From positions 53,090 to 117,089 of the forward strand of contig CAVSCC010000006.1 of the NCBI GenBank assembly GCA_963726345.1: a DNA stretch of 64,000 nucleotides. The letters are read 5' to 3'. This DNA comes from an uncultured Coriobacteriia bacterium. GTDB lineage: Bacteria; Actinomycetota; Coriobacteriia; Anaerosomatales; JAAXUF01. Positions within the stretch are counted from its first letter, which is position 1. The number at the start of each line of letters is the position of its first letter. Shown piece after piece: positions 13,799 through 63,300 of this stretch. Both the position numbers and the translations under genes were made by a program. Below the pieces are notes generated by a model, which was not told where the DNA came from, did not search any database, and saw nothing but the letters and a program-made list of their open reading frames with translations.

Positions 13799-14086
13799 GC
13801 TGCGCGCTGCCCCTCTCGGCGAAAGTGGGCGCTCCCGCCCGGCTGACCTGGTCTTTGACCCCACACTCGCATACGGGGGCTTCCGCTTGATGCAATCTCA
13901 CTACCGGCCCTCTCGCCCGAAGCCGCGGTATGCGGCTTACATCGGACGGTACGACTTACCCCTAAGACGCGCCATGCTCGCGCGACGGACGAATCCGCCG
14001 GCTTACGTGGATCCTTTCGGCCGCGTCTACCATGGACTAGGACGCTTTCGCGCCCGCAACCACAGACCCGAGCGGGAGCGAGGAAG
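13799..14086 (-). promoter_or_regulatory. Long (about 290 nt) GC-rich 5' leader upstream of SBP copy 2; candidate cis-regulatory RNA, class not identified
   Basis: This is the gap between the candidate promoter at 14087-14095 and the ATG at 13798. I saw no convincing ORF. It contains many self-complementary GC segments and a duplicated GUAAGCCG motif. Confidence 0.3.
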
Positions 14087-36659: not shown

Positions 36660-37920
36660 CTAGGATCGTGTGCGCTTGATGTCGGCGCCGAGTGACGAGA
36701 GCTTGTCGACAAAGCACTCGTAGCCACGATCGATGTGGTAGATGTCCCCGATGACCGTCTCTCCGTCGGCCACGAGTGCGGCGAGGACAAGCGCCGCGCC
36801 GCCACGAAGGTCGGGGCACTTCACGGGCGCCGCCGAGAGCCGTGCAACGCCCTTGACCAAGGCGTGATGCCCCTCGATCCGGATGTCGGCCCCCATGCGG
36901 CTGAGTTCATCGGCGAACATGAAGCGGTTCTCGAACACGTTCTCGGTGATGATGCTGTTGCCGTCCGCGATCGCCATGAGCGCCATGAACTGCGCCTGCA
37001 TGTCGGTCGGGAACCCCGGGTACGGAAGCGTCTGGATGTCTACAGGCCTGGCGGTCGCACTCCGTTGCACGGTCACGCCGTCCGCCACTGATGTCGATGC
37101 GACATCCGGCCTGCTCCAGTTTGGCGAGCAAGAGCTCAAGGTGGGCCGGGTCGAATCCGGTCACGGTCACCGGACCCCCCGCAATCGCACCCGCGACGAC
37201 GAACGTGCCGGCCTCGATGCGGTCGCCGACTACGCGGTGCTCGACGGCGTGAAGCGCCTCAACACCCTCGACGGTCACCGTCGAGGTACCGCCCCCGCTG
37301 ATGCGCGCACCCATACCATTGAGGAAGTCGATGAGATCGACGATCTCGGGTTCGCGCGCCGCGTTCTCGATCACGGTCGTCCCGCGAGCTACGCTCGACG
37401 CAGTGAGCAGATTCTCTGTGGCGCCGACGCTCGGGAAGTCCAGGACGACGTGTGCGCCGTGCAGTCCGCCCTTGGGGGCGACGGCGTCGATGAAGCCGTG
37501 ACCGGTCCGAATCTCGACTCCGAGCTCGGCGAGCCCGCGGATGTGCATGTCGATCTTGCGCGACCCGATGTTGCATCCGCCGGGCATCGCGACGTGCGCC
37601 TGCCCATAGCGTGCGACGAGCGGTCCGAGCACCGAGATCGAAGCGCGCATCTTGGCCACCATCTCGTACGGCGCCTCGAAGCTCGTGATCTCGGTGGCGT
37701 CCACGGTCAGCGAATGGTCGCTGCGCACTACGGTCGCGCCAAGGCCGGACAGCACCTCGGACATCACCTCGACGTCGGCGATGTCGGGAACGTTTGTGAT
37801 CCGCGATACCCCCGGAGCAAGCAGGGCCGCGGCCATGAGTTTGAGTGCGGAGTTCTTCGCACCCTCGACGCGGACTTGGCCGGAGAGTGCGCGGCCTCCG
37901 CGGACTGTGATGGATTCCAT
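36660..37920 (-). CDS. murA: UDP-N-acetylglucosamine 1-carboxyvinyltransferase MurA; 1 frame break near 37090-37100
   Basis: The N-terminal part reads [35 protein letters not shown]...[19 protein letters not shown].... The C-terminal fragment reads ...[49 protein letters not shown]...[13 protein letters not shown]. Confidence 0.93.
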
Positions 37921-38003
37921 GGGTGTCAGGATAGCGCACCTCTCCGTGGCGGACGCTGCTCCGTCACGTTCCCGTGAACCGGGAGCGGCAACCGGACGCA
38001 GCA

Positions 38004-38035
38004 GGGGCGGACCCGCTTTCCGCGAGTCCGCCCCC
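38004..38035 (-). terminator. Strong GC hairpin downstream of atpC (GGGGCGGAC...GTCCGCCCC)
   Basis: A 9-bp perfect outer stem with additional inner pairing, 25 nt after the atpC stop. There is no clear U-tract on the minus-sense RNA. Confidence 0.5.
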
Positions 38036-38059
38036 GGTTGAAAACGATTGAAGCTCGAG

Positions 38060-38479
38060 CTAGCCGCGCTTCTCGGCGACGCGGAGCTGGACCTCGGTCC
38101 AGTTCAGGTCGCGCAGGAGATTGTCGCGCTCCTCGCACTCGGCAGGAAGCTCGCCGAGGCGTTCCTTGATCAGGTCGGCCGACTCCTTGGCGCGATCCGC
38201 GTCGATCTGCGAGACCGGCACGGCGGCGTCAGCAAGGACGATGACCTTGTCCTCGTGCACCTGCAGGTAGCCGCCGTTGATCGAGAAGAACTCCCAGTCG
38301 GCGGCGGAGTCACCAAAGCGCAGACGGACCTCTCCAGGCGCGAGCGTCGTGACGATCGGGGCGTGGAGCGGCAGGATGCCGATCTCGCCCTCGGGCGTCG
38401 TTGCGACGACCATCTGCACCTCGTTGGTGTAGAGGATCGACTCGGGGGTGACTATCTCGCAGAGGAGTGTGCGGGCCAT
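38060..38479 (-). CDS. atpC: F0F1 ATP synthase subunit epsilon (intact)
   Basis: The 139-aa ORF reads ...EIVTPESILYTNEVQMVVATTPEGEIGILPLHAPIVTTLAPGEV.... It is the last gene of the atp operon. Confidence 0.92.
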   Translation of the reverse strand: MARTLLCEIVTPESILYTNEVQMVVATTPEGEIGILPLHAPIVTTLAPGEVRLRFGDSAADWEFFSINGGYLQVHEDKVIVLADAAVPVSQIDADRAKESADLIKERLGELPAECEERDNLLRDLNWTEVQLRVAEKRG

Positions 38480-38491
38480 ATGTCGACTCCC

Positions 38492-39922
<1,431 letters not shown>

Positions 39923-40819
39923 CTAGCCCTTGTCCTCCTGCGCTGCCGCACCGCCGACGATCTCGGCGATCTCGGTGGAGATCGCGTCCTGGCGAGCGCG
40001 GTTGTAGCTGCGCGTCAGGGTCGTGATCATCTCGGAGGCGTTGTCGGTGGCCGACTTCATAGCGGTACGACGCGCGCCCTGCTCGGCCGCGGCCGACTCA
40101 AGCATCGAGCGGTAGATGAGTGCCTCGACGTACGTCGGGAGCAGGTCAGCGAGCACCTGCTTGCTCGACGGCTCGAAGAGGTACTCGAGGTTGCGACCGG
40201 CGGCCTCGACGCCCGCCTCGGCAGAGTCGAGCACCTCGTGCTCGATCGGCAGAAGCTGGTGCATCTCGGGAACCTGGTCGGCGATGTTCTTGAAGCGGTT
40301 GAAGAGGACGTAGACCGCATCGAGCTCGCCGTCCTCGTACTCCTTCATGACGTGCGCCGCAATCGAGCGAGCCTCCTCGTAGGAGGGCTTGTCGGAGTTG
40401 CCGACGAGCGAGACGGACGGCTCAACACCGCGATAGCGGAAGTAGCCGAGCGCCTTCTTGCCCGCGAGGATCATCTCGACCTCGACACCATCGGCGGCGA
40501 ACTCGGCCATGGTGCGCTCGGTCAGGCGGATGATGTTGCTGTTGAACGCGCCCGCGAAGCCGCGGTCGGAGACGATGGAGATCAAGGCGACGCGCCTGCG
40601 CTCAGGGTGCACCTCGAGCAGCGGGTGACTCACGTCTTCGACGTAGCGGACGACGTTGCCGAGCACCTCGGCCATCGCCAGGGCGTACGGCCGTGCGTTC
40701 TCGATGCGCGTCTGCGCCTTCTTCAGCTTGGCGGTCGAGACCATCTCCATGGTGCGGGTGATCTGACGCGTCGACTGGACGCTCCCTATGCGGTTCTTGA
40801 TATCGCGCAGAGTCGCCAT
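39923..40819 (-). CDS. atpG: F0F1 ATP synthase subunit gamma (intact)
   Basis: The ORF reads MATLRDIKNRIGSVQSTRQITRTMEMVSTAKLKKAQ...ARQDAISTEIAEIVGGAAA. Confidence 0.95.
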   Translation of the reverse strand: MATLRDIKNRIGSVQSTRQITRTMEMVSTAKLKKAQTRIENARPYALAMAEVLGNVVRYVEDVSHPLLEVHPERRRVALISIVSDRGFAGAFNSNIIRLTERTMAEFAADGVEVEMILAGKKALGYFRYRGVEPSVSLVGNSDKPSYEEARSIAAHVMKEYEDGELDAVYVLFNRFKNIADQVPEMHQLLPIEHEVLDSAEAGVEAAGRNLEYLFEPSSKQVLADLLPTYVEALIYRSMLESAAAEQGARRTAMKSATDNASEMITTLTRSYNRARQDAISTEIAEIVGGAAAQEDKG

Positions 40820-40828
40820 CTAGTTCCC

Positions 40829-42451
<1,623 letters not shown>

Positions 42452-43018
42452 CTACGCTTCACCTCCAGTATGTGCACTGAGCACCAGACGGGCGTTCTCC
42501 AGCTGCGACGCCAGACTGGCGTCGATACGGTGCCCGTGCGTGCTGATGACGATTCCGCCGATGATCGACGGGTCGACCGTCTCCCGAAGGACGACGCCCT
42601 TCCCAAGATCCGCGGCGAGCTTTGCCGAGATTGACTCGCGCAGTGCATCCGAGAGCTCGACAGCGGTGGTCACGTCGACCGCAACCACGCCGCGCCGTTC
42701 CTCGGAGATCTCGTCGAACGCCTCGACAAGATTGGCGAGCAGTCCGAAGTCATTGCGCTCGACCATGACCGCGAGCGTGGAGACGAGCGATGGCTGCAGG
42801 CCTGCGAAGACCTCGCGGGCGACACCTGCGCGGCGCGCGCCGGGAACGCTGTCGTCTGCCATCGCGTCGCGCAGAGGAGCGTGACTGCGTACCAGCCGCA
42901 GCGCAGCGTCGAGCTGCGTGTAGACGTCATCCACGGCGCCCGCGGAGTCCGCTGCGTCAAAGAGCACGCCTGCGTACGTCGCGACGACCTGCTTTGCGAG
43001 CATCCTGCTAGTTGGCAT
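42452..43018 (-). CDS. atpH: F0F1 ATP synthase subunit delta (intact)
   Basis: The 188-aa ORF is OSCP-like (...VDPSIIGGIVISTHGHRIDASLASQLENA...). It sits between atpF and atpA. Confidence 0.88.
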   Translation of the reverse strand: MPTSRMLAKQVVATYAGVLFDAADSAGAVDDVYTQLDAALRLVRSHAPLRDAMADDSVPGARRAGVAREVFAGLQPSLVSTLAVMVERNDFGLLANLVEAFDEISEERRGVVAVDVTTAVELSDALRESISAKLAADLGKGVVLRETVDPSIIGGIVISTHGHRIDASLASQLENARLVLSAHTGGEA

Positions 43019-43508
43019 TCAGGCTGCCCGCCTCGCTGACGTACTTCTCGATGACTTTGAGCTGGTCATCTCGCGAGAGTTCACCGGCGATGAGCCTGCC
43101 GGCCACGGCGATCGACAGGTCCGCGACGGACTTCTGCAGATCGGCGATCGCAGCACGCTTCTCGCCCTCGATCGCCTCACGCGCCTTGGCGATCAGCTCG
43201 TCGGCATCCGCAAGGGCCTTGGCCTGGGCCTCGGACCGGGTCGACTCGGCAGACTGCTTGGCCTGCTGCAGGATCGTGCCGGCCTCTTTGCGCGCCTCAG
43301 ACATGGTGTGCTTGTACTCCTCGAGCAGACGCTCGGCCTCGACCTTGGCGGCCTCGGCGCGCTCGAGCGACTCGCGGATGTTGACCGCGCGCTCGTCGAG
43401 GATGCTCGTGATCGGCGGCCAGACGAACTTGGCCGAGATGAAGAGAATGATCAGGAACGATATGAGAGCCGGGATCAGCTCATTAAGCTTGGGTATGAGT
43501 AGCTCCAC
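43008..43508 (-). CDS. atpF: F0F1 ATP synthase subunit b (intact)
   Basis: An N-terminal TM segment (LIPALISFLIILFISAKFVWPPI) is followed by a long charged helix. Confidence 0.88.
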   Translation of the reverse strand: MELLIPKLNELIPALISFLIILFISAKFVWPPITSILDERAVNIRESLERAEAAKVEAERLLEEYKHTMSEARKEAGTILQQAKQSAESTRSEAQAKALADADELIAKAREAIEGEKRAAIADLQKSVADLSIAVAGRLIAGELSRDDQLKVIEKYVSEAGSLNAN

Positions 43509-43542
43509 GCCTGGTACCTCCGATTCGGCTTAGCGAAGCGAA

Positions 43543-43764
43543 CTAGCCGCCGATCTTGGTCCAGAGCAGGATCGCCATAACGAAACCGAGGATACCGAGC
43601 GCCTCAGCCATACCGGCGCCGACGAAGAAGATCGTCTGGACCTTGCCGGCGACCTCAGGCTGACGAGCCATGGCCTCGGTGGTGCCACGGGCAACCATGG
43701 CGATCGCGAGGGTCGCGCCGACGACGACGACCGCGTACATGAGACCGATACCGATAAACTCCAC
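43543..43764 (-). CDS. atpE: F0F1 ATP synthase subunit c (intact)
   Basis: The 73-aa ORF forms a two-helix hairpin, ...ARQPEVAGK...FFVGAGMAEALGILGFVMAILL, with the conserved carboxylate. Confidence 0.93.
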   Translation of the reverse strand: MEFIGIGLMYAVVVVGATLAIAMVARGTTEAMARQPEVAGKVQTIFFVGAGMAEALGILGFVMAILLWTKIGG

Positions 43765-43853
43765 TTTAGTCCTCCTTGGTTGTGGTGGGCCCCACTCTTG
43801 GGGACCGCGCCTGCAACTTCAGCCGGCGATTGTTCGCCGGGCAGAAACCGTGT

Positions 43854-44654
43854 CTAGTGCTCCGCGACGGCGAGCGAGATGTAGACCGTCGTCAGCAGCG
43901 TGAAGATGTACGCCTGCAGGATCGCGACGCCGATCTCCAGGACGTATAGGGCCGTGAGCAGAAGCATCCACGCCAACATTCCGATTCCGCCGATAGCGAT
44001 GTTCGCGACGCCGGAGCCTTCGATGCCGTGGATGATCTGCTCCACGGCGATCGAGGTCAGAATCGAGAAGATGCCGAGCACGATGTGCCCGGCATACATG
44101 TTGGCGAAGAGACGAATCGAGAGCGTGAACGGGCGCACGAAGAGCGAGATGACTTCGATGACCCAGATGACCGGCCACAGGACCCCGGGAACGCCATGCG
44201 GCACGATGCCCTTGATGTAGCCGCCGACGCCCTTCTTCTGCATGCCCGCTGCGTTGAACATGACGAACGCGACGAGCGCGAGCGCCACGGTGACGCCCAT
44301 CGTGCCGGTGCCGGGCTTGCCGCCCGGAAGGGTTCCGATGATGTTGTTGATGAGGATGAAGAAGAACACCGTGCCCAGGAAAGGAAAGTACTTGGTGCCC
44401 TCGGGGCCGATGTTGGCGACCGCGACATCGTTGCGAACGAACTCGACCAGCAGCTCGATCAGGTTGTAGAAGCGGCCCTTGGGGATGAGGCCTGCCTTCG
44501 TGCGGGCGACGAGGGTGATGACAAGCATCACGGCGACGGCGATGAAGAGGAAGACCAGGTAGTTGGTGAGGTGCCAGCTGGCGATGCCGGTCTCAAGATC
44601 GTTGGAAGCCAGGAAATGAAGTAGGTGTTCGATCTCTGCGCCGAAATTCTCCAC
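43854..44654 (-). CDS. atpB: F0F1 ATP synthase subunit a (intact)
   Basis: The ORF is polytopic and carries the conserved ...FTLSIRLFANMYAGHIVLGIF.... Confidence 0.93.
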   Translation of the reverse strand: MENFGAEIEHLLHFLASNDLETGIASWHLTNYLVFLFIAVAVMLVITLVARTKAGLIPKGRFYNLIELLVEFVRNDVAVANIGPEGTKYFPFLGTVFFFILINNIIGTLPGGKPGTGTMGVTVALALVAFVMFNAAGMQKKGVGGYIKGIVPHGVPGVLWPVIWVIEVISLFVRPFTLSIRLFANMYAGHIVLGIFSILTSIAVEQIIHGIEGSGVANIAIGGIGMLAWMLLLTALYVLEIGVAILQAYIFTLLTTVYISLAVAEH

Positions 44655-50954: not shown

Positions 50955-52023
50955 CTAGACGGCGGCCGCGAGGCGCTCGGCGCGGTCGGCGGCGACAAGG
51001 CCGTCGACGAGCGAGTCGATCTCGCCGGCCATGACCGCCGGGATGTTGTGGACGGTCAGGCCGATGCGGTGATCGGTGATCCGGTCCTGAGGGTAGTTGT
51101 AGGTGCGGATCTTCTCCGAGCGGTCGCCCGAGCCGATCTGGCTGCGTCGCTGGTCGCCGAGCTCGGCCTGCTGCTTCTCGAGCTCGAACTCGTAGAGCCG
51201 GGCGCGCAAGACGCGCATCGCCGCTTCGCGGTTCTGGAGCTGCGACTTCTGGTTCTGCGACTGAACCACGACGCCGGAGGGCAGGTGCGTGATGCGCACC
51301 GCCGAGTCGGTCGTGTTGACCGACTGGCCGCCCGGGCCGCTCGAGCGGTAGACGTCGATGCGGATCTCGTTCTGCTTGATCTCGATCTCGACGTCCTCGA
51401 CCTCAGGCAGCACGGCGACGGTTGCCGTCGAGGTGTGGATGCGTCCCTGCGCCTCGGTAGCGGGAACGCGCTGCACGCGGTGGACGCCGGACTCGAACTT
51501 CATCTTGGAGAACACCTTGGCGCCGCGAATACGGAACGAGACTTCCTTGAAGCCGCCGGAATCGCTCTCGGCTCGAGTCGATCTCGTCGACCTTCCACTT
51601 CTGCAGCTCGGCGTAGCGGGTGTACATGCGGTAGAGGTCGCCCGCAAAGATCGCGGCCTCGTCGCCCCCGGCTCCGGCTCGGATCTCGACGATGATGTCC
51701 TTGTCGTCGTTGGGGTCGCCGGGAAGAAGCATGACCTTGAGCTCGTCTTCGAGCAGCGGGAGCTGAGCCTCCAGCTCCTTGATCTCCTCGGCGGCGAACT
51801 CCTTCATCTCAGGGTCGCTCTCCTGCTTGAGGAGCTCTCTGGCCTCGTCAAGCTGGGCCGAGGCGGTGAGGAACTCGCGTGCCTTCTCGGCGAGAGGCGC
51901 CTGAGCTGCCTGCTCCTTGGCGAGCCGCGTGTACTCCTTCTGGTCGGCAAGGACCGCCGGATCGCCGAGCTTGGCGGTCAGCTCGGTGTAGGTGTCGAGC
52001 ATGTTCTGAAGCTTGGATCGCAT
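50955..52023 (-). CDS. prfA: Peptide chain release factor 1; 1 frame break near 51560
   Basis: The N-terminal half is in 51403..52023. The C-terminal half reads ...[29 protein letters not shown]...[26 protein letters not shown], carrying the PxT and GGQ motifs. Confidence 0.95.
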
Positions 52024-52067
52024 GGAGGTAACGCGTCCTTACGTCGGTGGTGTCTCAAACGAGGAGT

Positions 52068-53151
52068 CTAGCTTACGGTCTCCTCGACGGGCATGTCAGG
52101 TACCTCGAGAACGTCTCCGGGAAGGTCGCCGGGGTGCGGCTCACCCTTGGCGATGCGCTCCTCGCGCTCCTCGCGGGCGATGATCGGAACCATGGCCGCC
52201 ACGGCGACCTCGACCATGTCGTCGGTCGGCTCGCGCGTGGTCATGCGCTGCAGCTGCATCCCCGGCCACAGGAGGACCTTCACGAACGGGTTGGTCCGAG
52301 TGGTTGCCGGCCCACTTCACGGTGACCTCGTAGGCGAGGCCAGCGACGAGCGGCAGGAAGATCAGCCGAGCGAGGATGGCGATCATGGTGATGCCGATTC
52401 GGCTGGTCACGCCGAGGTTCTCGGCGATGAGCCTGACCGGCACGAGCGAGAAGACCAGGATCGCGAGGATCATGACCATCAGCAGGAATGACGTCCCGCA
52501 CCGCACGTGGAGCGTCTCGTAGCGCTGGATGAGCTCGGGCTCGAGCGGAAGGTTGTGCTCGTAGGCGTGGATGGTCTTGTGCTCGGCGCCGTGGTAGCCG
52601 AACACGCGCTTGATGTCTTCCATGCGCCCGATCGCCCAGATGTAGCCGAAGAACGCCACTACGCGCAGGATGCCGTCGACCATGTTCCAGGCGAACGGCT
52701 GCTCGGTGGCCTTGATGCGGAAGCCGTAGGTCGTGAGCACCGCCGGCAGGACGATGAAGAACAGGATCGCGAGTCCGGCCCCCAGCACCATGGTGATGCT
52801 GATCTCCTTGGCGGACAGCTGCTCCTCCTCGGTGTCGCCGGCAAGTGACGCGGACACCGAGAAGGCCTTCATGGCCAGCGAGAGCGTCTCGACCATCGCG
52901 ACGCAGCCTCGCACGATCGGCCAGCGCATCCAGCTCTTCTTCGCCTTGCCGGACTCCAGGTCATGCTCTTCGAAGTGGATGCTTCCGTCAGGCGTGCGGA
53001 CCGCGACGGCCCAGTTGTACCTGCCGCGCATCATGATGCCCTCGAGCACCGCCTGACCGCCGATGTGCGTGTGCGTGATCGGGCCGTCGATCGCGGGCAG
53101 CTTGGCAGTTGCGTCAGTCACGTTTGGGTGCCTTCTCGTAGGGTTCGCCAC
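52068..53151 (-). CDS. DUF1385 family membrane protein; 1 frame break near 52300
   Basis: The ORF reads IGGQAVLEGIMMRGRYNWAVAVRTPDGSI...VFGYHGAEHKTIHAYE...HVRCGTSFLL. This family typically sits next to prfA/prmC. The annotated start overlaps thyX by 38 nt, so the true start may be internal. Confidence 0.8.
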
Positions 53152-53797
53152 AGGTCATCTTGCCTTCTCGGCAGGGGCCCCGCCGACAGGATGCTCCAGC
53201 GTCCATGAAGATGTACGGGGCCACCGGCTCGATGAGGTCCAGCATCACGAGTGCCAGCTCGCGGATCTCCCACTGCGCGCGCTTGCAGCAGCGCAGCTCG
53301 AAGAAGTGCAGAAGCTCGCGGATGTTCATGGTGACGACGATCTTGGTCTCCATCGCGTTGGGCAGCAGGTAGCGCGCGTCCTCGGGCGCGACACCCGAGT
53401 CAAGGAGCTGCCGGTAGGCGATGAACGACGCCGCGCACGAGTCGAGGAACGCCGAGGCGGCCTGTTCGTCGGCGGCCACCTCGGGAGGCACGATGAACGC
53501 GGGCTCATCGGTGTAGGACACGTAGCGCTGGGACTGCTGGTTGTAGCTCGCGAGCCGATGCCTGACCAGCTGGTGCGTGAGCGCTCGCGACACGCCGTCG
53601 ATGGCGAAGGTGAAGCTCGCATGCTCCAGCGCCGAGGTATGGCCGCTGGTGATGATGACCTTGAGGACCTTGCGGACGGCCTCGTCGCTCATCGTCTCCA
53701 TGAGCTCGGCCGCGCCGACCGGCGCGTAGCACAGACGCGCCGCAGCAGCGATCGCGCGCTCCGGATCAGGCGTGCATGAGAGCAGTTTGACGTCCAC
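53114..53797 (-). CDS. thyX: FAD-dependent thymidylate synthase ThyX (intact)
   Basis: The ThyX motif is present in ...SALEHASFTFAIDGVSRALTHQLVRHRLASYNQQSQRY.... A GTG start is preceded by AGGAGG. Confidence 0.93.
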   Translation of the reverse strand: MDVKLLSCTPDPERAIAAAARLCYAPVGAAELMETMSDEAVRKVLKVIITSGHTSALEHASFTFAIDGVSRALTHQLVRHRLASYNQQSQRYVSYTDEPAFIVPPEVAADEQAASAFLDSCAASFIAYRQLLDSGVAPEDARYLLPNAMETKIVVTMNIRELLHFFELRCCKRAQWEIRELALVMLDLIEPVAPYIFMDAGASCRRGPCREGKMTCGEPYEKAPKRD

Positions 53798-53909: not shown

Positions 53910-54515
53910 TTACTCGGCGGCCTCGATGTCGGTCTCTTCGATGATCTCGGCCACGACCTCGCCGGTCTCTTCGTCGGTGATGACCGTGTCGGTGACGATG
54001 ATCTCCTCGACGACCTCGCCGGTCGCCTCGTCGGTGACAACGACGTCGTCGATGACGGTGTCGGCGACGAGCCCGTCGGCCTCGTCAACCTCGATGACCT
54101 CACTGACGGTCTCCTCGGCATCGAACTTGTCGGCGCGCGCCTCACGCTGCGCGGCCTTCTCCTCGCGAGTCGCCTTGACCTTCTCGGCTTCCTTGGCCTT
54201 GGCGGCCTTCTCGGCTTCCTTGGCCTCCTTGGCGACCTTCGCAGCGGCAGCGGCCTCGTCGGCGGCCTTCACGCGGGCGACCTTGTCGGCGGCTTCCTTC
54301 TCGCGAACCGTCGCGGCAGCGTTGCCGAACTTGTCGCTGAAGCGCTGGACACGGCCACCGGTGTCGACGAACTTCTGCTTGCCGGTGTAGAACGGGTGGC
54401 ACTCCGAGCACAGCTCGACGTGCAGGTCCGACTTGGTCGAACGCGTCTTGAACGTGTTACCGCACGAGCAGTGGACGGTTGCTTCCACGTACTCCGGGTG
54501 GATTCCCTGCTTCAC
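53910..54515 (-). CDS. rpmE: Ribosomal protein L31 (zinc-ribbon type A) with a ~130-aa C-terminal extension (intact, 201 aa)
   Basis: The first ~70 aa are canonical L31: [64 protein letters not shown]. An A/K/E-rich tract follows, and then acidic repeats ([14 protein letters not shown] / [14 protein letters not shown]). A GTG start is preceded by GGAGG. Confidence 0.9.
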
Positions 54516-54758: not shown

Positions 54759-56114
<1,356 letters not shown>

Positions 56115-56118
<4 letters not shown>

Positions 56119-56777
56119 GCGTTCTTCACTTTCTCCCAGTCGGCCAGGAATGACTCCAGGCCCCTATCGGTGAGCGGATGCTTCACCAGGTTCTTGAGCA
56201 CGGAGAACGGGACCGTCGCGATGTCGGCGCCCATGAGGGCCGCCTGCGTGACGTGGTTCGCCGAGCGAATCGAGGCCGCGATGACCTCGACTTCGTGACC
56301 GAAGTCGTAGTTGCCCAGCGCGACGACCACGTCGGCGAGCTGGGCGATACCGTCTTCGCTGATGTCGTCGAACCTGCCGACGAACGGCGATATGTACGAA
56401 GCTCCCGAACGGGCCGCCAGCATCGCCTGCGGCACCGTGAAGCACAGCGTCATGTTCACCTTGATGCCGCGCTCGTGAAGGATCTTGGTGGCGGCCAGGC
56501 CCTCGGGCATGGTCGGGACCTTCACGATGAGGTTCGGCGCGATGGCTGCGAGCTCCTCGCCCTCGCGCACGATCTCGTCACGCTTCAGGCCGACGGTCTC
56601 GCCGCTCACCGGGCCGTCGACGATGTCGCAGATGCGCTTCAGGTGGTCGTGGAAGCCCGCGAGCGTACCGCCGACCCGCGAGTACAGCGTGGGGTTGGTC
56701 GTGACTCCGGAGAGCACACCCCAACTCGCCGCCTCTTCGATCTCGGCGATGTCCGCCGTGTCCAGAAAGAACTTCAC
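56115..56777 (-). CDS. tal: Short-type transaldolase / fructose-6-phosphate aldolase family (intact, ~220 aa)
   Basis: A GTG at 56777 is preceded by GGGAGGAAAG. The ORF reads VKFFLDTADIAEIEEAASWGVLSGVTTNPTLY...LIVKVPTMPEGLAATKILHERGIKVNMTLCFTVPQAMLAA...ASYISPFVGRFDD. The ORF track fuses it to the upstream gene (56115..58130). Confidence 0.9.
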
Positions 56778-56820: not shown

Positions 56821-57728
56821 CTAGTCGGTATCGAGAGCGCTTGCCACCACGATGCTCGAGCACTTCTGCCACCGTGCGGTCGAGCTGGTGGCTGTAGATG
56901 CACCGGGATGTCGTGTTCCTGCGCAAGGTCCTCGATGTATCCACCCAGCGTGCGGATGTTTGCGAAGTTGTCGCGGTAGCGCGCGTGCGGCCGATTGCCG
57001 TCTGTCTGGGCTTCTCGGATGTAGAAGTGGCTCAGATGGGATTCCTCGTCATCCACCCCGATGACGAGCTGGACCACCCGAGCGGTGCCGAACTTTCGGG
57101 GGTCAAGGTATCCCGGGACGATGTGGATGCCCTCCACCACCATCGACATGCCTTCGAGCACCGCGCGCTTGATCAGCGCGTTGACTCCGGTGCTTACGAC
57201 GGCGGTCTGCTCGCGAAAGCCGACGATCACGGGATTGGCGCCTTGCGGCACCGGGACTCGCAGACCTCGCCACGCGTTGAACGCACTCTGATGAATCGCG
57301 GGCATGAGGTCCTTGGTGAATATACCACGCATGACTTCTCGGATGGAATCCGTCGACGAAATGCGGTTGATGCCCAGCCGGTGGGCGACCTCGGTGGCGA
57401 TCGTCGACTTGCCCACGCCGGTCGTTCCGCCGATCAGCACGATGAGCGGGCGGTCGCTGGCGAGACACCTCGCGAAGCTTCCGGTAGCGCGTCGCGTACC
57501 GCTCCCCCGCCGAGCGCTCCAGATGCTCCATCGGCGATCGTGCGAACCCTCTCCGAGGAGATCCTGTGTCTCGTCGTGCTCGAGCAGCTCGTCTTCGATG
57601 GCTTGGGCGATCGTCCAGGCCTTGTTGGGCACCAGCCCGGTCGCCGTGAACGACTGGGCGAGCAGGCCCTTGGAGAACGGCAGGCCGTGCGCCTTGTCGG
57701 TGATGATGATCGTCTTGGAGTCTGTCAC
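56821..57728 (-). CDS. 2-phosphoglycerate kinase homologue (COG2074-type); about 4 frame breaks
   Basis: A GTG at 57728 is preceded by GGGGAGGGGG. The N-terminal domain reads VTDSKTIIITDKAHGLPFSKGLLAQSFTATGLVPNKAWTIAQAIEDELLEH. The P-loop kinase core reads DRPLIVLIGGTTGVGKSTIATEVAHRLGINRISSTDSIREVMRGIF...AIHQSAFNAW...MVVEGIHIVPGYLD. As far as I remember it, this matches the archaeal 2PGK family. The probable stop is the TAG at 56823..56821. Confidence 0.75.
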
Positions 57729-59084
57729 GTCGCCCCCTCCCCACGCGTCCGCCCGCGAGCTAGCGCGGTTCGGGCAACCGAGCTCGATAGCTGCTTCCAG
57801 GTCCGCGCCGTCGACGGCGACCGGCACGTTGTCGCAGAGCACCGTCGGCACACCCCACTCCTCGCCCGCGGCCGCCACCACGTCGATCGCGGCCGCCTTG
57901 AGCTCGGTCAGCAGCAGGTCGAACCTGCCTGCCGACGGCGGCCATGTCCGCGCGCAGCAGCGAGCGGTCCGAGAGGTTGCGCGCTCGACGCGACGACCTC
58001 GCAGCCGTACTCGCTCCTCGAGGTGCGCCGCGAGCGTCGGCAGCATCGCAGCGGGCGCGGTCGTCGCGAAGAAGACGCGCTTGCCCGCGACCGGCTCGAT
58101 GGGCGCCGGGCGAAACGTCGTGGCGACCACCGGCAGGTCCGGCCGCGCCGAGGCGATCGCAGCGCGGATGGCCGTCGATCTCGGCGGGCGTGGCGACGGG
58201 CTCCTCGGCGGTGGCGATGATCGCGAGGTCCGCGCGCGCGAGGCGGTACGGGCCGAAGTAGTCGCGCACGTACGTCTCGCCGCGGCCGGCGCCGATCACG
58301 AGCACGGTCGCGTCGGCCGCGACCGGCGGAATCGCCGAGCCGGAGCCCTCGAGGATGAGGAGCTCCTTGCCGAGCGTGTCGGCGAGCAGCGCGCCTTCGG
58401 GCACGTTGCTGAAGAACGTCTCGCCGGCCATGCCGCCGCCGCACCGCCGGCAGCCGACGGTCGTGACGCGGCTCATCACCGCGTCCTCGTAGTTGTCGCT
58501 CGACGCGTGCACGCCCTCGCGCGCGAGCGCGAGCAGGTCGGGGGTGGTGAGCGCGACGCGCTCGCCGAAGATCAGCTCGGGCTCGGCGGGACCTCCTCGG
58601 CCCATCGCCAGCACCGCGACGTCGATCCCTGCGGCCTTGAGCTGCCGAGCGATGTAGGCGCTGACGGCGGTCTTGCCCACGCGCTTGCCGGTGCCGATGA
58701 TCCCGAGCGCCGGCGTCACGGTGACCACCTGCGCGCGGGGCGGCGTGAAGACGAAGTCCGCGCCGCGGTACTCGGCACCCGGCGGCCAGCGCGATGGACG
58801 CGAGTTCGAAGCGCTCGGCCGAGGTCAGCACCGGCTCGTCGGACAGGTCGACCACGGCGTCGGGCAGGTAGCGTTCAAGCGCCGTCGACAGCGCCTCGGC
58901 GGCGGTGGGTGCGGTCACGAGCGGCACGCCGTAGGCGCCGAACCCCGCGTCGAGGTCGATCTTCTCGGTCCCGCCGAGAAACGCCGCCGCGACGCACCTC
59001 GTGCTCGCGCGCGAGCTCCCCGAGCGCGAAGCGAACGACGGGCGGGTAGTGCTCGCCGTCGATGAGCGCGACGACGCGGCTCAT
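57725..59084 (-). CDS. Cyclic 2,3-diphosphoglycerate synthetase (cDPGS) homologue; at least 5 frame breaks
   Basis: The ATG at 59084 overlaps the upstream stop (ATGA). The reconstructed protein reads MSRVVALIDGEHYPPVVRFALGELAREHEV / VAAAFLGGTEKIDLDAGFGAYGVPLVTAPTAAEALSTALERYLPDAVVDLSDEPVLTSAERFELASIALAAGC / YRGADFVF...VTPALGIIGTGKRVGKTAVSAYIARQLKAAGIDVAVLAMGRGGPAEPE...LILEGSGSAIPPV...VVATTFRPAPIEPVAGKRVFFATT...FDLLLTELKAAAIDVV. The LIDGEHYPP start, the GTGKRVGKT P-loop and the ~440-aa length fit the cDPGS family as I recall it from Methanothermus. The 3' end is ambiguous (57725 or 57760). Confidence 0.7.
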
Positions 59085-59930
59085 GCCTCGGCCTCGGCGA
59101 TCCGCACGTCCTCGGCGGTCACGTCCGGCGCGACGGGGTCGGAAACGCTCGCGCCCGGCCGCCAGCCGCAGACGTGCTGGTGAAGGCCCCGGTAGTCGCC
59201 GACGATCTCGGCGTCCACGTAGGGCTCCTTGCGAAGGATGCGGACGTTGGTGTTGTCGCGGATCTCGATGATGTTGTACGAAGGCCGCACCTTGCCGCGC
59301 AGCCGGTGCGTGCAGCAGGTCCCGGCGTTGACGATGAGCATGTCCTCCAGGCGCCAGACGTTGGGGACGTGCTTGTGGCCGCAGAGCACGAGGTCCACGC
59401 CGTTGTCGGCGAGCACGCGGAGCAGGTCGCCCGCGTCGTGGACGATGTTGCGCTCGCGCCCGGTGCCCGGCACCGGCACCAGGTGGTGGTGCATCGCGAC
59501 GATCTTGAACTCCTCCTGGTCGATCGCGAACCGCTCCTCGAGCCAGCGGTACAGGTTGCGCCCGATGCGCCCGGAGTCGAGGTCGGGCTCGCTCGAGTCC
59601 AGCCCGATGACGCGCAACCCCGGCGAGTTCGAGTTCGATGCGTCGCGCGCCGAAGAGCTCCTCGAAGTGCACGTCGCCCACGTTGCGGGCGTCATGGTTG
59701 CCGATGAGAACCACCTGGCGCGCGCACTCGATGCGCTGCAGCAGGCGGTGGGCCTGCCGGAACTCGGCGCGAAAGCCCATGTCGGTCAGGTCGCCGGTCA
59801 CGATCACGATGTCGGGCGCAAGCTCGTTGAGCTCGTCGACCACGCGGTTCGCAAGACTGGGGATGTGGTACTGGCGACCCGCAGTGCAGGTCCGAGATCT
59901 GCGCGATCACGAGGGGATTGCTCATGCCCA
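59081..59930 (-). CDS. Calcineurin-like metallophosphoesterase (CpdA/Icc-like); 2 frame breaks
   Basis: The ORF reads M(G)MSNPLVIAQISDLHCG (DxH), DIVIVTGDLTD (GD), VVLIGNHDARN (GNHD), KIVAMHHHLVP (H) and DLVLCGHKHVPNV (GHxH). The stop overlaps the cDPGS start. Confidence 0.85.
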
Positions 59931-59960: not shown

Positions 59961-60953
59961 CTACTTGGGGACCGCGACGCCCCCGCCTTGCCCCGTCAGC
60001 TTGCCCGCCGCATCGAGATTGCCAAGCTGCCTCTCGATACCGAGCAGCGTGTTCAGGATCGTGTCGAAGCGCGCTTCGTCGTAGCGGACCACCTGCGTAG
60101 TCGCCCTTGATCCCGCCGAGCTTGGCCGCCGCTTTGAGCGCGTCCTCATACGTGCCGAGCTCGTCGACCAGACCGAGCTTCTTGGCCTCCGAGCCGTTCC
60201 AGGCCCAGCCGGTGGCCAGGCTCTCGACCTCGGAGCGCTCCATCTTGCGGCCCTCGGCGACGATGTCGATGAACTGGGCGTAGACCTCGTCGACCGACGT
60301 CTGGATGAGCGCCGTCTCGGTCGCGGTGAGCGCCTCGAACGGGCTGCCCGCGCCCTTGTACTCGCCCGCGGTGATCGTCACGAACTTGATGCCGAGCTTC
60401 TCGAGCAGCCCGTTGACGTTGGGGATCTCGGTGATGACGCCGATGCTGCCCACCGCCGAGCCGGGCAGCGCGATGATCGTGTCGGCCTGCGAAGAGACCA
60501 TGTAGGCGCCCGACGCGTCGACGTCGCCCACCGAGACGACGACCGGCTTCTTGGCGGCCTTCACGTACGCCGAGATCTCCTCGCTCGCGGCGACGGTGCC
60601 GCCGGGCGAGTTGACGCGCAGCACGATCGCCTTGACGTCGGAGTCATCCTCGGCACGGTTGAGCTTGTCGAGGAACTCCTCGGGCGTGATGATGCCGCCT
60701 GCCGCCGAACCGCTCCCCGCGATCGCTCCGTCCATCGGGATGACGGCGATACCGTTGCCGGAGATCAGCCGATCGGGGTTACCACTGCCGAGAAGCGACA
60801 CCGACCAGCCGCAGCTGCCGATGATGGCGGCAAGGCTGAGCGAGATCACGAGCACCCATATCCACGCACGTGACTTGCGAGCGGAGCTGCACGGTGCGGC
60901 GGGCGCGACGAGCGCGGGATGGCCGGGCGGAGTTGCGGGTCTTCGAAGGACAT
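59961..60953 (-). CDS. sppA: Signal peptide peptidase SppA, 36K type (peptidase S49); about 2 frame breaks
   Basis: The ATG at 60953 follows a GGAGG RBS. A TM anchor (WIWVLVISLSLAAIIGS) comes first. The S49 core reads IVLRVNSPGGTVAASEEISAYVKAAKKPVVVSVGDVDASGAYMVSSQADTIIALPGSAVGSIGV...GEYKGAGSPF. Confidence 0.88.
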
Positions 60954-61089: not shown

Positions 61090-62009
61090 TCAGAGGAGTC
61101 GGGCGCCCTCGCCGATCGATGCGGACCGCCTGCGGGGCGCGGCGCGTCGGGAGCGCACGCGCGCCCACGGCCGCGCGCTCTGCGACCTCGACCGCGAGCG
61201 CGTAGGCGGCCTCGTCGGTGTCGGCGGCGACCAGGCCGATGACCGTCGGCCCGGCACCGGAGAGCGCCACGCCGGCGGCGCCCGCGCTGCGCAGGATGTC
61301 GTGGACGGCCCGCAGGTCGCCGACGGCCGAGGCGCGGTACGGCTCGTGCAGGCGGTCGGCGAGCGCCGCGCCGAGAAGCTCGGGCCGGCCGGTCGCGATC
61401 GACGCCGCCAGCAGTCCGGCGTGCGCGACGTTGAAGGCGGCGTCCGCGTGCGGAACGTCCGTCGGCAGCATCGCGCGAGCCTTCGAGGTCGCGAGCTCGC
61501 CGGTCGCCGACGACCACGACCGCAGCCAGTCCGCGAGCCGGCTCGAAGCGAGCGGTTCTCGGCCGACCGGCGTCGGTCCAGCACACCGTGAAGCCGCCGA
61601 GAATCGCCGCGGCGGCGTTGTCGGGATGGCCCTCGATGCCCGCGGCGAGCTCCAGCACGCGATCGCTCCCGGGGTCCTCGGCGAGCAGCCGGAACCCCAG
61701 CAGCAGCCCGCCGACGATCGCCGAGGACGACGAGCCGAGCCCGTTGCCGAGCGGGATGCGGTTGACGCACTTCACGCGCGCAGCTGCGTCCGGCTGACCG
61801 GCGACCTCGAAGGCGACCTTCATCGCGCGGACGACCTGGTTGCGCTCGTCGGTGGCGAGCACGCCCGCGCCCTCGCCCTCGACCTCGACGCTCCAGCGCT
61901 CGGCCAGCTCGGCCTCGAACTCGTTGTGGAGGTCGAGCGCCAGGCCGAAGGAGTCGAAGCCCGGGCCGAGGTTCGCCGAGGTGGCGGGTACTGAGACGCC
62001 GGCTCCCAC
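61090..62009 (-). CDS. thrB: Homoserine kinase; at least 3 frame breaks
   Basis: The ORF reads VSVPATSANLGPGFDSFGLALD, then the GHMP motif NRIPLGNGLGSSSSAIVGG, then GIEGHPDNAAAAILGG. The next frame reads MLPTDVPHADAAFNVAHAGLLAASI...LHEPYRA...SGAGPTVIGL. The ORF track fuses it with hom (61090..63300). Confidence 0.9.
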
Positions 62010-62012
62010 GGA

Positions 62013-63300
62013 CTAGAGCTCCTCGACGCGGATGACCGCGGCGATGCTCGTCACCACGTCGAGCGACTCGATCTCGGCCAGCGCCGAGCGCACGTCGGCC
62101 TCGCGAGCGGTGTGCGTCACGTAGACGATCTGCGCGACGCCGCCCTCGGCGCGCTTCTGGATGACGGAGCCGATCGAGACGCCGTGCGCGCCGAACACCG
62201 TGGCGACCGCGGCGAGCACGCCGGGCTGGTCGGCGACGGCGAGGCGCACGTAGTACTCGGTCTCGAGCTGCGCGATGTCGCGGACCGGCGAGCGTCTCGG
62301 TGCAGGTGCAGCCGACGAGCGGCGCGCACCCGGTCTGGATGCGGCGCGCCTCCTCGATCAGGTCGCCGACGACCGCCGAGGCGGCCGGCAGCGAGCCGGC
62401 GCCCTCGCCGAAGAACATCGTCTCGCCCACCGCGTCGCCGACCACGTAGATGGCGTTGTAGACGCCGTTGACGCTGGCGAGCGGGTGGGCGTTGGGGATC
62501 ATGGTGGGATGCACGCGCACGTCGATGCCCTCGGGAGTGCGACGCCCGATCGCGAGAAGCTTGATGGTGTAGCCCATCTCGGCGGCGTAGGCGATGTCCT
62601 CGGGAGCGAGTCCGCGGATTCCCTCGGCGGGGACCTGGCTCATCACCACGCGGCTGTTGAACGCGATGGAGCACAGGATCGCGATCTTGGCGGCGGCGTC
62701 GAGGCCGTCGACGTCGGCGGTCGGGTCGGCCTCCGCGAAGCCCTTGGCCTGCGCCTCGGCGAGCGCGGTCGCGTAGTCGAGACCGTCGGAGGCCATGCGC
62801 GTGAGCATGTAGTTGGTGGTGCCGTTCACGATGCCCATGACCGTCTGGATCTCGTTGCTGGTCAGCGAGTGCTTGAGCGGGCCGATGATCGGGATGCCGC
62901 CGCCGACGCTCGCCTCGAAGAGGACGTCGACGCCGTTGGCCTCGGCCGCCTGCATGACCTCTTCGCCGTGGCTCGCGAGCAGCGCCTTGTTGGCGGTGAC
63001 GACGCTCTTGCCGGAGTTCAGCGCCGCAAGCACGACCTCGCGCGCGACACCGGTCCCGCCGATGAGCTCGATGACGATGTCGAGCGAGTCGTCGGCGATC
63101 ACGTCGTGCCAGTCGTCCGAGCACTTCTCGGCGGGAAGGCCGAGATCGGCGAAGCGCTCGGTGGTGCGGTCGGCGAAGCGCGCCAGCTCGATGTCGACGC
63201 CCGCGCGGCTGCGGAAGTCCTCGCCGTGGCGCGTCAGAATCTCGACGACGCCGGATCCAACGGTTCCCAGTCCGACCAGGCCGACTCTGATGGTGCGCAT
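62013..63300 (-). CDS. hom: Homoserine dehydrogenase with C-terminal ACT domain; 1 frame break near 62285
   Basis: The ORF reads MRTIRVGLVGLGTVGSGVVEIL...VVTANKALLA...LFEASVGGGIPII...GIVNGTTNYMLT...DPTADVDGLDAAAKIAIL.... The ACT fragment (62013..62249) reads YVRLAVADQPGVLAAVATVFGAHGVSIGSVIQ. A GGAGGA RBS precedes the ATG. Confidence 0.93.

Follow-up and report, generated by a model that had tools for sequence, protein, structure and literature searches.

A putative cyclic 2,3-diphosphoglycerate pathway encoded between thrB and rho in an uncultured Coriobacteriia bacterium

Cyclic 2,3-diphosphoglycerate (cDPG) has been stated to be exclusive to hyperthermophilic methanogens (PMC10690619), and cpgS, the gene of its synthetase, is taken in genomes as a sign of thermophily, as was done when ancestors of ammonia-oxidising archaea were reconstructed (PMC7554672). 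A stretch of 64,000 nt of contig CAVSCC010000006.1 from an uncultured Coriobacteriia bacterium (hereafter the window, in whose positions all coordinates are given) raises the question of whether bacteria may own this pathway too. It contains two adjacent minus-strand genes, cpgS and 2pgk, which lie between the housekeeping genes thrB and rho, have reading frames that are interrupted several times, and had been assigned in a preliminary description to cDPG synthetase (cDPGS) and 2-phosphoglycerate kinase (2PGK). Our analysis indicates that this locus probably encodes a functional bacterial two-step cDPG pathway, for which we infer the enzyme activities, the co-transcription and the physiological role.

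Both genes could be rebuilt, as had been anticipated, once the breaks were bridged by frameshift-aware alignment. For this purpose a frameshift-tolerant protein-to-DNA alignment against intact orthologues was used, the references for cpgS being the orthologues P0001 (403/449 identical) and L001. Seven breaks were located in cpgS (near 58994, 58780, 58174, 58015, 57980, 57936 and 57782) and five in 2pgk (near 57566, 57533, 57457, 56900 and 56851), and all 12, which fall within 2.27 kb, consist of one surplus base each. The second of the two proteins has the predicted length of 300 aa, whereas the first, which had been put at about 440 aa, has 450 aa. The peptide strings that had been quoted for them, MSRVVALIDGEHYPPV, GTGKRVGKTAVS, LLLTELKAAAIDVV, HGLPFSKGLLAQSFTATGL and LIGGTTGVGKSTIA...SSTDSIREVMR, were all found on the minus strand by three-frame translation.

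From its sequence, the 450-aa product of cpgS is an orthologue of cDPG synthetase. A phmmer search against the PDB aligned residues 3-434 of the query with residues 6-448 of the Methanothermus fervidus enzyme (8ORK/8ORU, E=1.2e-119), and the two proteins are 47% identical over essentially their full length, with both the unique N-terminal domain of about 127 aa and the P-loop core covered. In the structures of this enzyme (8ORK, apo; 8ORU, with ADP, Mg2+ and 2,3-diphosphoglycerate, 2,3-DPG) the substrate 2,3-DPG is bound by K145 and R146 together with E45 and K46 of the partner subunit, the Mg2+ ion by T150 and D208, and ADP by E305, P335, T353 and E404, while K149 and K406 shield the phosphate charges (PMC10690619). 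Eleven of these twelve named ligand or catalytic residues are conserved in the window protein. Residues E40/K41, K133/R134, K137/T138, D196, T341 and E392/K394 are invariant in an alignment of six sequences and correspond, in the same order, to E45/K46, K145/R146, K149/T150, D208, T353 and E404/K406 of M. fervidus, and E293, the equivalent of E305, is also present. The twelfth, P335, has no clear placement in the alignment register, the surrounding FRP.P motif being conserved.

The two proteins also share the two-domain full-length architecture, a Walker A motif of the form GTGKRxGKT (GTGKRVGKT in the window) and the GGTEK motif, which gives E45/K46 to the 2,3-DPG site of the partner subunit. 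The AlphaFold2 model of P0001, which is 90% identical to the window protein, has a predicted local distance difference test score of 83.9 and was matched by Foldseek to 8ORK with a template modelling (TM) score of 0.86, the next-best fold, that of LpxK, reaching about 0.4. All of the 120 closest homologues carry a precomputed match to PF27272 (CpgS_N). Local Pfam and NCBIfam scans of the window protein returned only a 19-bit match to the KamB P-loop; these libraries apparently hold no cDPGS model, and the identification therefore rests on the sequence and fold matches to the PDB. What sets the window protein apart from the M. fervidus enzyme, besides an activity that is so far predicted, is its setting: the host is a bacterium, a high-GC uncultured member of the Coriobacteriia that is probably not a thermophile, and the gene stands within a thrB...rho housekeeping run, flanked by 2pgk and by the gene of a metallophosphoesterase (mpe). 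Another PDB entry named cDPGS, 9SXB (chain A), is a Lys/Ile-rich protein of 436 aa which is 43% identical to the window protein and has no equivalent of E305 (AD-- in place of AEEP).

The 300-aa protein is predicted to be a kinase of the 2PGK family. It was matched by the NCBIfam model NF003259 (PRK04220; COG2074) with 305.7 bits (E=3.6e-91) over profile positions 4-290 of 306, the runner-up families being PRK12338 (157 bits) and mevalonate-3-phosphate 5-kinase (90 bits), and by NF008994 with 320.6 bits (cutoff 603). With archaeal 2PGK it shares this end-to-end profile match, the size of about 300 aa and a P-loop (GGTTGVGKST), and its N-terminal region may be ATP-cone-like as well. The match of this region to PF03477 is weak (21.3 bits, gathering score 25.8), and precomputed PF03477 matches are present in several orthologues. 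Unlike the archaeal family, the window protein scores under the curated cutoff and its gene overlaps that of cpgS by start and stop codons. Its sequence found generic P-loop matches only in the PDB (E>0.02), and there is no solved 2PGK structure; the enzyme of M. fervidus is that of Lehmacher & Hensel (1994, as cited in PMC12136491). The two identities given in the preliminary description are thus borne out: in the profile search that had been proposed, 2PGK is the best family of the second protein by a wide margin, even if below the cutoff, and the proposed structural comparison, made with the P0001 model, leads from the first protein to M. fervidus cDPGS.

The pair belongs to an unbroken run of co-directional genes on the minus strand (63300-54759), hom-thrB-sppA-mpe-cpgS-2pgk-fsa-rho (Table 1). 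The three overlaps that had been noted are confirmed by the sequence: ATGA at 59081-59084 unites the stop of mpe with the start of cpgS, GTGA at 57725-57728 the stop of cpgS with the start of 2pgk, and ATGA at 56115-56118 the stop of fsa/tal with the start of rho. These overlaps suggest translational coupling, and motifs resembling the Shine-Dalgarno sequence (GGAGG/GAGG-like) precede the starts of cpgS, 2pgk and fsa. A consensus scan for promoters and terminators found no such site within the run, which is weak evidence as actinobacterial signals fit the consensus poorly. On the 3' side of rho, about 50 nt past its stop (~54716-54689, minus strand), there is a GC-rich hairpin whose 12-bp stem is perfectly paired around a loop of 4 nt; it has no T-run and probably marks where transcription of the hom...rho unit stops. 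In mycobacteria the gene order is hom-thrC-thrB-rho-rpmE-prfA. It had been claimed that the pair and tal were inserted exactly at the thrB-rho junction; the position is right, but five genes (sppA-like, mpe, cpgS, 2pgk and fsa/tal) lie between thrB and rho.

When GTDB was scanned with one genome for each species, at least 509 genomes proved to encode a relative of cpgS, and the gene context was taken from the best 80. Among these best 80 of at least 509 there are 68 Actinomycetota-type genomes (Coriobacteriia, Candidatus Aquicultor, Subteraquimicrobiales and Rubrobacter metagenome-assembled genomes, MAGs), two of Bacillota and 10 of Methanobacteriales, which include Methanobrevibacter. The term archaeal-type, under which the genes had been introduced, is therefore apt as the history of their discovery, but within this sample the bacterial carriers outnumber the archaeal ones. 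The closest homologues, with 71-91% identity, all come from MAGs and metagenomes of uncultured Coriobacteriia or Actinomycetota, and further clusters at 50% identity have named members in MAGs of Bipolaricaulota and Cloacimonadota. The survey that had been recommended hence finds the gene pair to be common in anaerobic Actinomycetota, with relatives in other phyla.

Synteny was counted in 68 actinobacterial loci, from a set made up of the 80 loci of the genome scan plus L001 and L002 and minus the duplicate L003. The recurrent order in these loci is (thrB)-(sppA)-metallophosphoesterase-cpgS-2pgk-fsa-rho. The metallophosphoesterase gene is placed directly 5' of cpgS in 58 of 65 loci and 2pgk directly 3' of it in 57 of 63, and rho follows at most 3.3 kb downstream in 51 of 52, in several classes; this synteny persists where the identity of cpgS is as low as 47-52%. 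None of mpe, 2pgk and rho was found to accompany cpgS in the 10 Methanobacteriales loci and the Bacillota loci examined. The linkage of cpgS with rho is stable even where thrB, sppA, fsa or 2pgk is missing, and no functional reason for it is evident. At the loci of the Rubrobacter clade (L077, 5192-9260; L066, L067, L074, L078 and L081) the genes are arranged as argS-mpe-cpgS-rho, with a gap of about 370 nt. In a Bacillota MAG (L055, 5041-11219) a cpgS homologue of 459 aa, with GGTEK and Walker A intact, has a GntR-type regulator on one side and, on the other, an ABC transporter comprising a binding protein, a permease and an ATPase.

For the chemistry of the proposed pathway we follow what has been described in archaea (PMC12136491; PMC10690619). 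The 2PGK-family kinase would convert 2-phosphoglycerate (2-PG) and ATP to 2,3-DPG, and cDPGS would move the gamma-phosphate of a further ATP onto the 2-phosphate; the 3-phosphate would then attack, with release of inorganic phosphate, and close the cyclic pyrophosphate, cDPG. All genes would be expressed within the one run from hom to rho. The product of mpe may reopen or dephosphorylate the compound (cDPG to 2,3-DPG to 2-PG or 3-phosphoglycerate), and synthesis by cpgS and 2pgk together with this breakdown would make up a cycle of synthesis and turnover. The earlier view of the genes as an integrated module agrees with the tight co-directional hom-thrB-...-rho cluster and with the purifying selection described below.

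A number of observations weigh against such a pathway. The literature searched offers no biochemical or metabolite evidence of cDPG in bacteria and no bacterial cDPG pathway, the sole bacterial mention being that of COG2074 in Thermus and Deinococcus; this is in line with the earlier remark that no bacterium had been reported to make the compound, and it extends to the enzymes. The score of 2pgk is lower than the curated equivalog cutoff of NF003259 (343 bits), and so are those of intact orthologues (307.1 and 309.4 bits). Members of the 2PGK family are known with other roles, such as plant LPA1 and mevalonate-3-phosphate 5-kinase. Six loci, all of the Rubrobacter clade and with the order mpe-cpgS-rho, have no adjacent 2pgk, and in Bacillota the context of cpgS is an unrelated one, with a GntR regulator and an ABC transporter. 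The frame breaks are about twice as dense in cpgS and 2pgk as on average over 13 genes of the neighbourhood (binomial p=0.006, densities and test taking in 30 breaks), and a genuine lesion may be hidden among the errors of the pair. Adjacent genes for cDPGS and 2PGK, of which the function is known from annotation only, are also present outside the cDPG-accumulating methanogens in Thermococcales (Pyrococcus yayanosii PYCH_14390-400, PMC4890121; Thermococcus kodakarensis TK1039, PMC5663688). Unlike the carrier of the window, these hosts are hyperthermophilic archaea, and the P. yayanosii copy stands in a region rich in mobile elements and CRISPR rather than in a housekeeping operon. We know of no report of cDPG among the solutes of Thermococcales, and because these organisms own the pair all the same, the genes do not guarantee that cDPG is accumulated.

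Such points lend some substance to an alternative that we consider unlikely but deserving of attention, namely that the enzymes are active with a different substrate, product or direction and that cDPG is not accumulated. The kinase could merely supply 2,3-DPG, the synthetase could cyclise another bisphosphate, or the reaction could run in reverse and yield ATP from an imported compound. The kinase score below the cutoff and the cpgS genes without adjacent 2pgk in Rubrobacter and Bacillota would fit with this, the Bacillota context hinting at another use, perhaps in catabolism or linked to uptake; so would the reported reversibility of M. fervidus cDPGS (PMC1224877) and the example of ArcE, in which the same fold serves a very different reaction (PMC11032458). 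However, the residues that contact 2,3-DPG (E45, K46, K145 and R146) and Mg2+ do not differ between the window protein and M. fervidus cDPGS, and the start/stop-overlapping linkage of cpgS with 2pgk is tight in the great majority of loci counted above. Should synthesis of cDPG prove to be the wrong reading, the pair would mark a variant phosphoglycerate chemistry.

The excess of breaks could also mean that they are real and that cpgS and 2pgk are decaying pseudogenes, which we regard as very improbable. Of the 32 breaks found in the 13 genes between 49359 and 62009, 30 are +1 insertions. The surplus bases are C or G and lie outside homopolymers, as seen in DNA alignments to relatives, and they are also found in rho (1 break), prfA (1), thrB (2), mpe (2), the DUF1385 gene (3) and prmC (7). 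The highest density is that of prmC, with 7.9 breaks per kb compared with 5.5 in 2pgk and 5.2 in cpgS, and fsa, thyX and rpmE have none. The corrected frames contain no in-frame stops. The ratios of nonsynonymous to synonymous substitution rates in comparison with the L001 orthologues are 0.185 for cpgS and 0.174 for 2pgk (0.03-0.17 for neighbouring genes), and both genes are under purifying selection. In addition, housekeeping genes are likewise fragmented on the related contig L002, which comes from the same kind of assembly. Since rho and prfA must be intact for the organism to survive, these insertions have to be ascribed to an assembly that is prone to errors, and the pair is otherwise intact. 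As to the excess in cpgS, 2pgk and prmC, the least conserved genes are apparently hit hardest. GC content was considered as the cause of the uneven density and rejected (Spearman rho 0.29, p=0.33); strain heterogeneity in the less conserved genes is a guess.

The P-loop fold of cDPGS is shared with a distant paralogue, the arginine synthetase ArcE (T. kodakarensis TK2200 family), which has a reversible, ADP-forming ligase chemistry and homologues that are widespread in bacteria (PMC11032458). It could be asked whether the 450-aa protein is in fact an ArcE, and we find this highly improbable. The similarity between ArcE and cDPGS is low (PMC11032458), whereas the window protein reaches 47% identity with a cDPGS that has been characterised both biochemically and structurally. 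ArcE is furthermore tied to arcB (ornithine transcarbamoylase) and arcC (carbamate kinase), and in the local neighbourhood of cpgS, in the window and in its relatives, these genes are absent, cpgS being accompanied by 2pgk, mpe, fsa and rho.

A rough neighbour-joining tree, rooted at the midpoint, places the actinobacterial cpgS sequences in one group, with an inner structure that tracks taxonomy, apart from Methanobacteriales, Bacillota and 9SXB; the window sequence is nested in the Coriobacteriia clade. Because the synteny recurs and the tree groups the actinobacterial sequences, the mpe-cpgS-2pgk block is an old trait which these lineages have conserved, at the place where other Actinomycetota have the thrB-rho junction, and neither a private insertion nor a chimera. 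The idea of a one-off insertion, as conveyed by the preliminary description, has to be given up for a block that is conserved across several Actinomycetota classes. That archaeal DNA was mis-joined to a bacterial contig, for which nothing speaks except that the family has historically been labelled archaeal, is scarcely conceivable in view of a gene order that is repeated at 68 other actinobacterial loci belonging to many separate MAG records, 4-nt overlaps with bacterial neighbours, and a tree position inside the Coriobacteriia and away from Methanobacteriales.

The third member of the block, mpe, is linked to cpgS at least as faithfully as 2pgk is, and this linkage by itself makes its product a candidate for a cDPG or 2,3-DPG hydrolase; the obvious alternative is a role in cyclic-nucleotide turnover. 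About 274 residues were recovered by joining the frame pieces by hand, incompletely at the first break, from a gene of 845 nt whose intact orthologue has 288 aa, and all five metal-binding motifs (DLH, GD, GNHD, HH and GHKH) are present. A homologue search found only close Coriobacteriia relatives with the generic names CpdA/Icc. When the L002 orthologue was used as the query, the nearest solved relatives were GpdQ of Enterobacter aerogenes and Rv0805 of Mycobacterium tuberculosis, two class III metallophosphodiesterases that are alike in their binuclear motifs and size (~270-290 aa); however, the similarity amounts only to E~1e-11 and neither of them is linked to cpgS. Hydrolase activities on cDPG and 2,3-DPG were reportedly described in Methanobacterium thermoautotrophicum in 1992-94, and to our knowledge the gene for a cDPG hydrolase has never been identified. 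Hydrolase activities separate from the synthetase, which is reversible in M. fervidus, have been described (PMC1224877).

As for the role of cDPG, in methanogens it is also seen as a store of carbon, phosphate and possibly energy (PMC12136491; PMC1224877). The record titles of many carriers (palsa, nzgw, HGW, MFD, ELA, lake and sediment bins) can be read as pointing to peat, lakes, groundwater and soils, which suggests an origin in anoxic habitats that are not thermal. Because the habitats appear non-thermal, a reserve of phosphate, energy or carbon, or an anionic solute balancing K+, would be a more likely role than thermoprotection, which is unlikely in these hosts. When the optimal growth temperature was estimated from six proteins by their IVYWREL fraction, the pooled value was about 45 °C; it was discarded as uninformative, the same formula giving 54 °C for the enzyme of M. 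fervidus. That organism grows at about 83 °C.

At the level of genes the finding is not new, because relatives are already named by automatic annotation in NCBI ('2,3-diphosphoglycerate synthetase') and JGI ('cyclic 2,3-diphosphoglycerate synthetase'), with '2-phosphoglycerate kinase' as the partner in both. Well-conserved, selected and operon-embedded cpgS-2pgk pairs are present in anaerobic Actinomycetota, in dozens of genomes that each stand for a species. How widely the bacterial carriers are spread and their apparent mesophily, together with the hydrolase candidate, are more surprising than this window itself. We are inclined to sketch, as a speculation that is rather doubtful when taken as a whole, that cDPG may be a widespread metabolite of Actinomycetota that are anaerobic and for the most part mesophilic, and of other uncultured bacterial phyla, that mpe may be the cDPG/2,3-DPG hydrolase, that mpe-cpgS-2pgk may by themselves make up a buffer for phosphate and energy that is connected to glycolysis, and that the adjacency of rho may tie its expression to a core housekeeping transcript. 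If bacteria do make cDPG, its distribution and presumed thermoprotective role would need revision and cpgS would no longer be a safe marker of thermophily. Mesophilic enzymes would also become available for the production of an extremolyte of commercial interest (PMC12136491), and the linked phosphoesterase would be a concrete candidate for the enzyme that degrades it.

Table 1. Genes of the hom...rho run, in the order of transcription (positions in the window; ORF, open reading frame)
Gene and product	Position	Strand	Remarks
hom, homoserine dehydrogenase	62013..63300	-	several frame breaks; first of run; ORF fragments; ACT and Homoserine_dh Pfam matches on orthologues
thrB, homoserine kinase	61090..62009	-	2 frame breaks; GHMP_kinases Pfam match on L001 orthologue
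sppA-like, S49 signal-peptide peptidase	59961..60855	-	1 frame break; Peptidase_S49 Pfam match on orthologues
mpe, calcineurin-like metallophosphoesterase	59081..59925	-	2 frame breaks; PF00149, E=6.4e-17
cpgS, predicted cDPG synthetase orthologue	57725..59084	-	450 aa after removing 7 single-base insertions
2pgk, predicted 2-phosphoglycerate kinase family	56821..57728	-	300 aa after removing 5 single-base insertions; GTG start
fsa/tal, short transaldolase / fructose-6-phosphate aldolase family	56115..56777	-	220 aa; 0 frame breaks; PF00923
rho, transcription termination factor	54759..56118	-	1 frame break (near 55464); last of run

Among the other genes of the run, the fsa/tal product was matched by TIGR00875 with 251.6 bits (curated cutoff 245.95) and is 98% identical to the L001 orthologue. 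The true start of the sppA-like gene is possibly farther upstream, up to about 61008.

Beyond rho, the rpmE gene (53910-54515, minus strand) encodes a protein of 201 aa in which the core of ribosomal protein L31 is followed by a low-complexity tail of about 130 aa rich in Lys, Glu and Ala. The orthologue on L002 has 158 aa, and such a tail extension is typical of the lineage and variable in length. The genes thyX and DUF1385 are placed between rpmE and prfA (51972-53797, minus strand), an order which is kept in L001 and L002. What looks like an operon for an F-type ATP synthase, its ORFs measuring 476, 298 and 540 aa, is found on the minus strand at ~36900-44650, a position consistent with the usual actinobacterial order prfA-prmC-sua5-...-atp, and within it the stretch 38843-39493 is cross-matched by the rho query with 23% identity. 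The only Rfam match in the whole window is a full-length raiA motif RNA at 13834-14076 on the minus strand (RF03072, 160 bits, gathering score 101).

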